NCBI RefSeq assembly: GCF_003334355.1
Contig: NZ_QOWP01000064.1
DNA: 7,192 nt
From: Escherichia coli
Lineage (GTDB): Bacteria; Pseudomonadota; Gammaproteobacteria; Enterobacterales; Enterobacteriaceae
Reading direction: 5' to 3' (one strand)
In this document: positions 4,001 to 7,192 of the stretch, in pieces
Layout of the letters: each line of letters opens with the position of its first letter
Numbering within the stretch: the first letter of the stretch is position 1
Notes under the pieces: model-generated
The model's database searches: none
What the model was told of the DNA's origin: nothing
The model's input: the letters and a program-made list of their open reading frames with translations, nothing else
Translations under genes and position numbers: made by a program

Positions 4001-5261
4001 CTACACGCGGATACAGCATGGCGAGCCACTGGTCGAGAGCCGCTACCTCTACGACCCGCTGGGACGGCGAATGGCAAAACGGGTCTGGCGGCGGGAGCGT
4101 GACCTGACGGGGTGGATGTCGCTGTCGCGTAAACCGGAGGTGACGTGGTATGGCTGGGACGGCGACCGGCTGACGACGGTGCAGACTGACACCACACGTA
4201 TCCAGACGGTATACGAGCCGGGAAGCTTCACGCCGCTCATCCGGGTCGAGACAGAGAACGGCGAGCGGGAAAAAGCGCAGCGGCGCAGCCTGGCAGAGAC
4301 GCTCCAGCAGGAAGGGAGTGAGAACGGCCACGGCGTGGTGTTCCCGGCTGAACTGGTGCGGCTGCTGGACAGGCTGGAGGAAGAAATCCGGGCAGACCGC
4401 GTGAGCAGTGAAAGCCGGGCGTGGCTTGCGCAGTGCGGGCTGACGGTGGAGCAACTGGCCAGACAGGTGGAGCCGGAATACACACCGGCGCGAAAAGTTC
4501 ATTTTTACCACTGCGACCACCGGGGCCTGCCGCTGGCGCTCATCAGCGAAGACGGCAATACGGCGTGGCGCGGGGAGTATGATGAATGGGGCAACCAGCT
4601 TAATGAGGAGAACCCGCATCACCTGCACCAGCCGTACCGTCTGCCAGGGCAGCAGCATGATGAGGAGTCGGGGCTGTACTATAACCGTCACCGGCACTAC
4701 GATCCGTTGCAGGGGCGGTATATCACCCCGGACCCGATTGGGTTGAGAGGTGGATGGAATATGTATCAGTATCCGTTGAATCCCATACAAGTGATAGACC
4801 CAATGGGGTTAGATGCGATTGAGAATATGACATCAGGTGGACTAATTTATGCCGTATCTGGTGTACCTGGATTGATTGCTGCAAACAGCATTACTAACAG
4901 TGCTTACCAGTTCGGTTATGATATGGATGCTATTGTTGGCGGAGCTCATAATGGGGCCGCCGATGCAATGAGACATTGTTACTTGATGTGTCGAATGACT
5001 AAGACATTTGGATCAACAATAGCTGACGTGATAGGTAAAAATCATGAGGCGGCAGGGGATAGACAAGGTCAGCCAGCTAAAGAAAGAATCATGGATCTTA
5101 AAAATAACACTGTCGGTATTGCTTGTGGCGATTTTTCTGCCAAATGTAGCGATGCATGTATTGAAAAATATAACACTGGGCAACTCTTCGGGTTAGATGG
5201 TATAAAAGCAGATAATCCAATAAAAGCAAAGCAAGGGAGTTCAGATGCTTCAAATTATTAG
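1032..5261 (+). CDS. Rhs-family polymorphic toxin: PAAR-like N-terminal domain, YD-repeat shell, RHS core ending in DPxGL, variable C-terminal toxin
   Basis: 1409-codon ORF ending at TAG 5259-5261. Many YD-type repeats ([86 protein letters not shown]). Core terminus is [32 protein letters not shown]. The start is ambiguous: in-frame candidates are TTG 1032 and ATG 1071, while the ATG with the best Shine-Dalgarno (1039) is in another frame. Confidence 0.9.
1039..1074 (+). other. Short [14 protein letters not shown]-stop carrying the PAAR motif, out of frame with the rhs body
   Basis: ATG 1039 preceded by GAAGGA (1025-1030) with an 8-nt spacer. It translates atg agc gga aaa cca gcg gcg cgt cag gga ata tga. 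Confidence 0.6.
4731..4811 (+). other. RHS core C-terminal boundary with two DPxGL motifs (DPIGL 4731-4745, DPMGL 4797-4811)
   Basis: Both motifs read directly in the rhs frame. The sequence turns from GC-rich to AT-rich across this segment. Confidence 0.8.
4812..5258 (+). other. Rhs variable C-terminal toxin domain, about 149 aa, family not recognised
   Basis: Sequence downstream of DPMGL: [151 protein letters not shown]-rich, with five Cys and several His. Confidence 0.7.
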
Positions 5262-5727
5262 AGGCAAACTTGTCATTTTTTTAATTACCCTTTGTTTATT
5301 TGTTGTTTACCTTGGGTTTGATAACAATTCAAATTCTGACATCGTATTTTATGGACATAAAACACCAAAGAGCGTTGAGATATATCTTTCTGAAAAAAAT
5401 ATTATTTATAAAATAATTAATGACCAAAAAATTAGTAGAGGGAATGGTCATTTTATAAGTGTAATGGTTAATAATTACAGGACGCACTGTGGAGTGGTTG
5501 ATATAAATCTTAATTTTTTCAATGATATTCTTTATAGCGTGCGATTAAAAAACATTAGTAAACTGGAGAATATGGAGTTCTGCGCTACAAAACAACGGGT
5601 GTATTTTAGTGATAAAAACAAGAAGGCTAGTTATAAAATAATTAATTATGGAGACTATTATGATGTTGATTATTATGATAACAATTTGAAAAATGAAGTT
5701 TTTGACTGGATTGGTAAATGGTCATAA
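5245..5727 (+). CDS. Putative cognate Rhs immunity protein (160 aa) with N-terminal hydrophobic signal/anchor segment
   Basis: ATG 5245 preceded by AGGGAG (5234-5239) with a 5-nt spacer. It overlaps the rhs stop by 17 nt and ends at TAA 5725-5727. Positively charged start (RGK) then hydrophobic [17 protein letters not shown]. Same AT-rich composition as the toxin domain and the usual position for an Rhs immunity gene. Confidence 0.7.
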
Positions 5728-5804
5728 TGAACAACACCAGAAAGAGAAAAATATAAAATACATACAGAAAGACATGAGAGCAAGGGACGGGGCAGGGCAA
5801 GATC

Positions 5805-5836
5805 ATGAAAATTGTGATGTAAATCACGATTTTCAT
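5805..5836. repeat. Imperfect inverted repeat: 14-nt arms (13 of 14 complementary; the odd position is a G-U wobble in RNA) around a 4-nt loop; possible weak terminator or protein-binding site
   Basis: atgaaaattgtgat-gtaa-atcacgattttcat, followed by ctttgcttt. It lies 78 nt downstream of the immunity stop. Confidence 0.5.
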
Positions 5837-5908
5837 CTTTGCTTTAACGCCTACAGGTGATCAAAATTTAACCTTTGGAATAACTAAAAAGATAAAAAAG
5901 GACGCCAG

Positions 5909-7031
5909 GTGAGTATTCAAAGTTTGCTTGATTATATTTCAGTGACCCCTGATATACGACAACAAGGAAAGGTTAAACATAAATTATCTGCTATTTTGTT
6001 TCTCACCGTATGTGCAGTAATTGCAGGTGCCGATGAGTGGCAGGAAATTGAAGATTTTGGACATGAAAGACTTGAATGGCTAAAGAAATATGGTGATTTT
6101 GATAATGGCATTCCGGTCGATGACACCATTGCACGCGTTGTGAGTAACATTGACAGTTTGGCCTTTGAAAAGATGTTTATTGAATGGATGCAGGAGTGCC
6201 ATGAAATCACTGATGGTGAAATTATAGCAATAGATGGAAAGACCATAAGAGGCTCCTTTGATAAGGGAAAAAGAAAAGGAGCAATCCATATGGTGAGTGC
6301 ATTCTCGAACGAAAATGGTGTTGTACTGGGGCAGGTGAAAACGGAAGCCAAAAGTAATGAGATTACAGCCATTCCAGAGTTGCTTAACCTACTGTATTTA
6401 AAGAAAAATTTGATAACCATTGATGCTATGGGCTGTCAGAAAGATATCGCTTCGAAGATCAAAGATAAAAAAGCAGATTATCTTCTGGCAGTAAAAGGCA
6501 ATCAGGGGAAATTACATCATGCATTCGAGGAAAAATTTCCTGTAAATGTGTTTTCTAATTATAAAGGCGATTCGTTTAGTACGCAGGAGATAAGTCATGG
6601 AAGAAAAGAAACACGTTTGCATATTGTCAGTAACGTAACGCCTGAACTTTTGTGATTTTGAATTCGAATGGAAGGGATTAAAAAAGCTTTGTGTAGCATT
6701 GTCATTCAGGCAGAAGAAAGAAGATAAATCAGCAGAAGGTGTAAGCATCCGATATTATATTTCATCAAAGGATATGGATGCTAAAGAATTTGCACATGCT
6801 ATCAGAGCGCACTGGCTGATCGAGCACAGTCTTCATTGGGTGTTAGATGTAAAAATGAATGAAGATGCCAGCCGGATAAGAAGAGGAAACGCAGCCTAAA
6901 TAATATCTGGAATAAAGAAGATGGCACTGAATTTATTAAGAGATTGCAAAGACATTAAGGGTGAAGAGGAAAAGAAAGAAGGCTGCGTTAAACACAGGGA
7001 AAGATCATCAGAAGTTCACTTTTTGTACTAA
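5909..7031 (+). pseudogene. ISAs1-family (H-repeat associated) transposase, disrupted by a frameshift near 6650-6653 and an in-frame TAA at 6897-6899
   Basis: Segment 5909..6655 carries the family hallmarks as I recall them (EITAIPELL, DAMGCQKDIA, AVKGNQG). The protein continues in another frame from about 6654 ([18 protein letters not shown]...[29 protein letters not shown]) to TAA 6897-6899. The same frame then stays open for 43 more codons (IISGIKKMALNLL...) to TAA 7029-7031. The three segments sum to about 371 codons, close to the family length as I recall it. Confidence 0.8.
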
Positions 7032-7126
7032 ATAATTCGCATTTTATGTTTAAAAATTGAGATATTCCTCATTACCTGAAGCTGTTTTTTATTGCTTATA
7101 CATGATCAAATACTCCTTACATAATT

Positions 7127-7132
7127 AAGGAG
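7127..7132 (+). promoter_or_regulatory. Shine-Dalgarno AAGGAG for the second H-repeat transposase
   Basis: aaggag at 7127-7132, 6-nt spacer, ATG at 7139. Confidence 0.6.
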
Positions 7133-7138
7133 AACAAA

Positions 7139-7192
7139 ATGGAACTTAAAAAATTGATGGAACATATTTCTATTATCCCCGATTACAGACAA
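7139..7192 (+). CDS. 5' end of a second ISAs1-family (H-repeat) transposase; continues beyond the window
   Basis: MELKKLMEHISIIPDYRQ matches the N-terminus of E. coli H-repeat proteins (YhhI-like) as I recall it, and a strong SD lies upstream. It shares only 8 of 18 residues with the N-terminus of the upstream pseudogene (MSIQSLLDYISVTPDIRQ). Confidence 0.75.
   Translation, partial: MELKKLMEHISIIPDYRQ

Follow-up and report, generated by a model that had tools for sequence, protein, structure and literature searches.

In IS200, IS10, and IS50, a stem-loop lies within the first ~50 nt of the insertion sequence (IS), where transcripts from outside enter the element. The left-end hairpin of IS200 has been shown experimentally to be a terminator that blocks impinging transcription, and in the fold-back inhibition of IS10 and IS50, the stems sequester the ribosome-binding site. 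The canonical E. coli cAMP-CRP consensus is the palindrome AAATGTGATCTAGATCACATTT. Operators of this type, for example, those of yneE, ydeA, and dtpA (Footprint-seq; Wang, Stringer and Wade 2026, Table 1), combine a TGTGA-N6-TCACG core and A/T-rich flanks with a sub-nanomolar Kd in vitro and an intergenic location between divergent start codons. In IS2, a member of the IS3 family, CRP binds directly at the transposase promoter and represses it ~200-fold, coupling transposase expression to carbon status; this repression was both measured and footprinted (Hu et al. 1998, as described in PMC4265352). For IS50, the same paper gives a ~4-fold increase of transposase expression in a crp mutant, which is genetic evidence, from expression changes only, that crp lowers transposase transcription. 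The Rhs-attached H-rpt elements of the ISAs1 family, ISEc26, ISEc5, and ISEc1, have CAGGGnAAGATCA terminal repeats and a single DDE transposase of ~390 aa and are located downstream of rhs and a small partner gene.

Here we analyze a palindrome at positions 5805–5836 of a 7,192-nt stretch of E. coli DNA (hereafter, the window), at the left end of an element that shares all these features of the Rhs-attached H-rpts. Like the canonical CRP operators, it contains the TGTGA-N6-TCACG core with A/T-rich flanks, is bound with a sub-nanomolar Kd in vitro, and lies between divergent start codons; unlike them, the site is found within the terminal 44 bp of an IS and over the start codon of a small protein. 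It occupies the same part of the IS as the stem-loops of IS200, IS10, and IS50, but the hairpin is located 65 nt upstream of the Shine-Dalgarno sequence, unlike the IS10 and IS50 stems, and, unlike the IS200 hairpin, for which termination has been shown, it has no mapped RNA 3′ end (Adams 2021, K-12). The dyad can be likened to the CRP site of IS2 as presented in PMC4265352, with the differences that it belongs to an element of the ISAs1 family and that its CRP site is known from in vitro binding.

The dyad and the insertion sequence that carries it

The window encompasses the E. coli vgrG–rhs (RhsE type)–ydcD locus and is 99.9% identical to several complete genomes; over 5600–6100, it is 100% identical to K-12 MG1655. 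The annotated gene ydcD (5245–5727, plus strand, 160 aa), which overlaps the end of rhs, is the presumed immunity gene and is followed in RefSeq by yncO on the minus strand, the frameshifted yncI from 5909, and the ISAs1 transposase gene ydcC from 7139.

The dyad consists of two 14-bp arms, ATGAAAATTGTGAT (5805–5818) and ATCACGATTTTCAT (5823–5836), around the 4-nt center GTAA, and is followed by the tail CTTTGCTTT. The initial annotation had described a 14-bp stem with a GTAA loop, one G-U wobble, and this tail, all of which are present in the sequence as claimed. The sole asymmetry is at 5813, where the window and K-12 have T and O157:H7 has C, which makes the O157:H7 palindrome perfect; the T gives a G-U pair in the plus-strand RNA and a C-A mismatch in the minus-strand RNA. 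The folding energy is clearly beyond that of shuffled sequence, as the annotation had proposed to check: the plus-strand RNA of 5795–5850 folds at -21.4 kcal/mol vs -7.6 ± 2.3 for 200 dinucleotide shuffles (z = -6.0; 0/200 as good), and the minus-strand RNA at -14.3 kcal/mol (z = -3.6), the latter fold being weaker because of the C-A mismatch; by itself, the 32-nt hairpin reaches -15.3 (plus) and -10.0 (minus) kcal/mol. A palindrome whose arms are 14 bp long, with no more than one mismatch, occurs once in the window vs 0.02 times per shuffled window, and 0.003 times per shuffle of the AT-rich segment. The dyad is real and non-random, far beyond chance. An outer helix predicted to lengthen the plus-strand hairpin (5796–5843; 5796–5801 pairing with 5838–5843) is not conserved: one of its pairs is reinforced and another disrupted by naturally occurring variants at 5838 and 5840. 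An Rfam covariance-model search of 5600–6000 produced no family match at E ≤ 1. The left arm and loop (5805–5822, plus strand) also read as a five-codon mini-ORF, ATG AAA ATT GTG ATG TAA (MKIVM*); the minus-strand frame likewise begins with MKIV, as follows trivially from the palindrome.

The dyad begins 78 nt past the ydcD stop codon, that is, downstream of the immunity gene, as originally described; this is not neutral spacer, however, but the left end of an IS. The left terminal inverted repeat GCAGGGCAAGATCATGAA (5792–5809, plus strand) of this ISEc26-type H-rpt pairs with a right repeat in the intact O157:H7 copy, where the two 18-nt repeats, GCAGGGCAAGATCATGAA and TTCATGCTCTTGCCCTGC, are 94% complementary, ~1.3 kb apart, and flank a gene for an intact 390-aa “ISEc26 family” transposase. 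The terminus CAGGG(C/A)AAGAT is common to ISAs1 relatives from other genera and is also present at 6995, the start of a second H-rpt; with CAGGG-type terminal repeats flanking one DDE transposase gene, the element is a member of the ISAs1 family. The dyad corresponds to positions 13–44 of the IS and the CRP site within it to positions 18–39; the inner 5 nt of the left terminal repeat (ATGAA) are the first 5 nt of the left arm of the hairpin.

In the window, the transposase gene of this element, yncI (5909–6994, plus strand), is degenerate, with a frameshift and an internal stop. The element ends ~115 bp short of its right end and directly joins the CAGGG terminus of the second H-rpt at 6995, so that it is without a right inverted repeat in this strain. 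With the right end lost to the second H-rpt and the transposase gene broken, the window element is a remnant. The left end of the second H-rpt, of the ydcC/ISEc5 type (6995–7192, plus strand), has the CAGGGAAAGATCA repeat and the ATG at 7139. Between the dyad and yncI, a TGATCA block, which includes a Dam site (5858–5863, plus strand), is conserved in 10/10 aligned ISAs1 left ends, ~45–50 nt ahead of the start codon, and is a candidate -10 element of the transposase promoter.

Two GATC (Dam) sites are present in this region, one in the left terminal repeat (5801–5804) and one in the TGATCA block (5859–5862); the O157 right repeat has GAGC in place of GATC. By analogy with IS10 and IS50, these sites suggest that end use and promoter activity may be Dam-sensitive. 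In O157:H7 strain 2149, which has the intact ISEc26 transposase and the perfect 14-bp palindrome (locus L002, 2553–3859), the rhs-ydcD-yncO-IS block adjoins yafV/ivy rather than pptA, and ydcD is frameshifted.

The minus-strand ORF that overlaps the dyad (5642–5836), dismissed as spurious in the initial annotation, is yncO (5642–5827, minus strand), which is annotated in RefSeq and encodes a 61-aa small protein. YncO (GTG start, 1530319–1530504) was detected by chromosomal SPA tagging and immunoblotting (VanOrsdel 2018, Table 1), so the dismissed ORF is a validated gene. Its GTG codon (5827–5825) lies within the TCAC half-site and an upstream in-frame ATG is at 5836–5834, both in the right arm of the dyad. 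Given the position of the terminal repeat, yncO starts within the IS, crosses the repeat in the outward direction, and runs on into the 3′ end of ydcD, which it overlaps by 86 nt; the pair is listed as a convergent ydcD–yncO overlap. The gene is chimeric: the first ~12 codons are located in the IS left end, and the remainder is antisense to the spacer and to the terminal 86 nt of ydcD. Expression of yncO is probably owed to outward transcription from the IS remnant.

The left end containing the dyad is present in 2,461 of the 5,426 complete E. coli genomes, always as a single copy beside ydcD; 2,123 of the matches are exact and 336 have one mismatch, the latter group taking in the O157:H7 and O55:H7 strains among the matches listed. 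Natural variation is limited to two alleles, T or C at 5813, and is uninformative on compensatory change. An independent copy of the element was found neither in the 5,426 E. coli genomes nor in PLSDB; plasmid matches in PLSDB, considered as potential mobile copies, were rejected as mis-assigned pieces of chromosomes. Short contigs (L005–L008) in MAGs named Sporosarcina, Bacillota, Planococcaceae, and Flavobacterium carry a 94–95% identical copy of the transposase, most likely, due to E. coli contamination of these bins.

For a comparison across the family, 80 ISAs1 loci were fetched, their terminal repeats were defined, and 29 left ends (28 relatives and the ydcC copy) were searched. In these 29 other left ends, the best palindromes scored 3–9, were unrelated in sequence, and were not clearly above chance, and no CRP-like site was detected (best, 8.3 bits); nor does the dyad correspond to an aligned conserved block among ten ISAs1 left ends. 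The possibility that the dyad is a feature of the ISAs1 family was accordingly rejected, the other left ends showing short unrelated palindromes and no CRP site. Among the Rhs-attached H-rpt lineages, only ISEc26 has the dyad; in the adjoining ydcC-type copy, the homologous spot (7056–7075, ATTGAGATATTCCTCATTAC) is a degenerate CRP-like sequence that scores 4.9 bits. Some distant ISAs1 elements have 6–7-bp palindromes just inside the left repeat, at IS positions ~19–46, each with a different sequence (L009, 1076–1092; L016 and L017, 1054–1070; L029, 723–739; L065, 1088–1104), an unconvincing enrichment over chance.

A CRP site within the dyad

The 22-bp sequence AATTGTGATGTAAATCACGATT in the middle of the dyad (5810–5831, no strand assigned) is identical to the CRP consensus in 17 of the 22 positions. 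Its half-sites, TGTGA (5813–5817) and TCACG (5824–5828), one perfect and the other matching in 4 of 5 positions, show the N6 spacing, are centered between 5820 and 5821, and have A/T-rich flanks. We scored this sequence with a PWM derived from the 39 other high-affinity Footprint-seq sites (Wang, Stringer and Wade 2026, Table 1), the dyad site being left out. The score, 21.3 bits, exceeds those of all 39 training sites (maximum, 20.9); the next best position in the window scores 6.7 bits, and the highest of 200 shuffles 17.2. The O157 allele, with CGTGA on both sides in its perfect 14-bp palindrome, scores 19.7 bits.

Another line of evidence comes from published binding data. Footprint-seq (PMC12871828, Table 1) identified a CRP-bound region centered at NC_000913.3 1530492 and assigned to yncI, with the site atTGTGAtgtaaaTCACGatt, which is window 5811–5831 (the offset was fixed via the yncO coordinates); the estimated Kd of ~0.6 nM is the second tightest among the “novel” sites of that study. 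The gSELEX-chip analysis of Shimada 2011 (PMC3105977) reported ydcC as a new CRP target, and its supplement places a CRP box, CGTGATTTACATCACA, in the ydcD-ydcC interval at 1.52852e6; the box corresponds to 5813–5828 read as the reverse complement. Thus, two independent genome-wide data sets, both obtained in vitro on naked DNA, place CRP on exactly this sequence, and the existence of a CRP site here is already known from published in vitro binding. We estimate the probability at roughly 0.7 that the dyad represents a cAMP-CRP operator of high affinity, carried by an ISEc26-type IS in its left end, directly inside the terminal inverted repeat, and that the hairpin is a by-product.

Such a by-product is expected: near-consensus CRP sites are palindromic, with arms of 11 bp, so that a transcript across one is predicted to fold as an A-U-rich hairpin with runs of A and U on its flanks; the A-U richness of the stem, which the initial annotation found unusual, follows from the palindromic CRP consensus with its A/T-rich ends. 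When treated as RNA, the CRP consensus and other strong CRP sites form 5–9-bp stems with 4-nt loops. The CRP half-site accounts for 11 of the 14 arm positions of the dyad. Unlike in canonical CRP operators, and as a point against the CRP reading, the palindrome extends 3–5 bp on each side beyond what the CRP footprint consensus requires, the extra bases on the left being those of the IS terminal repeat. Most likely, the RNA hairpin is incidental rather than a selected feature. Of the two functions originally suggested for the dyad, a terminator or a protein-binding site, the latter is supported, the protein being CRP, whereas the former has pattern-level support only.

Alternative readings of the palindrome

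The dyad could instead be an intrinsic, possibly bidirectional terminator or insulator, in which the hairpin and the following CUUUGCUUU would stop rhs-ydcD transcripts before the IS, sparing the element transposase activation. This is compatible with CRP binding, and both functions could coexist. A scan of 5200–6200 with a simple permissive consensus produced the dyad as the only terminator-like match, with 14 pairs, 3 of them G-C, and the tail CTTTGCTTTA with 6 U in 9; the plus-strand fold is strong relative to shuffles, the location just past ydcD, at the entrance to the IS, would favor a terminator that insulates the element, as in IS200, and the inner stem UGUGAU/AUCACG, with an A run on one side and a U run on the other, has the architecture of a terminator. 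Conversely, only A-U pairs make up the tail-proximal base of the stem, the inner stem that contains the G-C pairs contributes only -5.9 kcal/mol, and C and GC break up the U tract. In addition, natural alleles do not conserve the outer helix, other ISAs1 left ends have no conserved counterpart of the hairpin, and the CRP consensus already accounts fully for the palindrome. Mapped RNA 3′ ends, the check named in the initial annotation, also speak against termination: the complete curated Term-seq table for K-12 in three growth conditions (Adams 2021) lists no 3′ end at 15305xx and has no entry for ydcD, yncO, or yncI. This negative result is weak because K-12, with only a 5′-truncated rhsE, is without the vgrG-rhs promoter region, and little transcription may reach the site; hence the terminator is kept as a minor rival. 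The TERMITe supplement contained nothing relevant to RNA 3′ ends at the dyad. A dedicated terminator at the dyad is unsupported, and we regard this function as unlikely.

Still less probable is translational control of yncO, whereby the minus-strand hairpin would bury both candidate start codons (ATG at 5836 and GTG at 5827) and limit the synthesis of YncO. Both codons are indeed in the 5′ arm of this hairpin, the minus-strand fold stands out from shuffles (see above), and the hairpin is more stable with the perfect O157 allele than with the K-12 allele (-16.0 vs -10.0 kcal/mol). Nevertheless, YncO is detectably made in K-12, and a dedicated control element is unlikely for a chimeric frame that starts in an IS and continues into the flanking DNA; furthermore, with only the T and C alleles at 5813, there is no variation that would be informative on compensatory change.

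A role in IS-end architecture, with the dyad serving as a second inverted transposase-binding site or as a host-factor bending site for the left-end transposition complex, appears highly improbable. The left arm opens with ATGAA, the innermost 5 nt of the terminal repeat, and the right arm closes with the complement of these bases, and several ISAs1 relatives have 6–8-bp palindromes at IS positions ~19–46, but those palindromes are unrelated in sequence and not clearly commoner than expected by chance. The right arm and its flank match the right terminal repeat in only 7 of 18 positions, with no likeness past TTCAT, and the right arm was rejected as a second inverted IS end on this ground; neither the 5,426 E. 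coli genomes nor PLSDB contain an independent transposed copy to show movement of the element.

Finally, the FlhD4C2 box (definition: 42–44 bp, AAYGSSNNAAATAGCG-N10-12-CGCTATTTNNSSCRTT) that Takada et al. 2023 (PMC9962212, Table 1, row 13) assign as AAGATCATGAAAATTGTGATG TAAATCACGATTTTCATCTTT (window 5800–5841) under a gSELEX-chip peak of intensity 11 in the ydcD-ydcC interval is probably a motif-finder artifact on a palindrome under a near-threshold peak, and FlhDC is a most improbable ligand of the dyad, considering that the peak barely exceeds the cutoff of 10, that the ydcD-ydcC probe is absent from the FlhDC gel-shift set, that the box was chosen by MEME, which favors any strong palindrome, and that, of the 8 positions which the authors describe as highly conserved, 5 agree (A1, A2, A10, A11, and A13) and 3 do not (G4, A9, and T12).

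Possible control of transposase and YncO by CRP

Under the preferred reading of the dyad as a CRP operator, a CRP dimer would bind the TGTGA-N6-TCACG core and the A/T-rich sequence around it. The site is located between the terminal repeat and the start of the transposase gene, its center being 88.5 bp upstream of the GTG (5909), and covers the yncO start codon. Bound CRP might then control weak IS-borne promoters on either side, namely, the downstream transposase promoter and the one for the outward yncO transcript, such that expression of the transposase and YncO would follow carbon status, as in IS2 and, on genetic evidence only, IS50. Since only a dead remnant of the element is left in the window, its site is probably now a relic with retained CRP binding.

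The direction of such control would depend on the promoter involved. With the TGATCA block as the -10 element, the CRP center would be at about -47, right next to the -35 region. Activation from there would be non-canonical, which suggests repression or no effect; a weaker candidate -10 element, TAACCT (5869–5874), would instead put the CRP center at -61.5, as in class I activation. The CRP site would be downstream of any start point of the outward yncO transcript, which suggests repression. Within 5780–5908, neither strand contains a sigma-70-like promoter with at least 9 of 12 matches, and the supplementary tables of Cappable-seq and SMRT-Cappable-seq, which are possibly incomplete, list no transcription start sites for the region in either coordinate system. 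The section on H-NS complexes in PMC3661553 includes the “promoter island” 1527917_612 (ydcD/yncI, 612 bp, in older K-12 coordinates), which, by our own coordinate conversion, is the AT-rich window segment ~5217–5829; this counts against an in vivo role of CRP, and the listing fits silenced, AT-rich acquired DNA.

A tentative extension of the CRP reading is that the ISEc26-type H-rpt recruited CRP as a left-end host factor, so that carbon starvation would switch the transposase or transpososome together with YncO; we consider this possible, with the odds against it. If true, this would be the first such case in the ISAs1 family, and an IS remnant would have donated a CRP-controlled small-protein gene beside an Rhs toxin locus. 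The dyad matters little for the biology of Rhs or type VI loci, being part of the adjoining IS and not of the toxin-immunity operon. More generally, near-consensus palindromic operators, CRP sites above all, resemble A-U-rich terminators in raw sequence and call for caution. Activity of the site in vivo, if it occurs, would couple carbon status to an IS family without described regulation.
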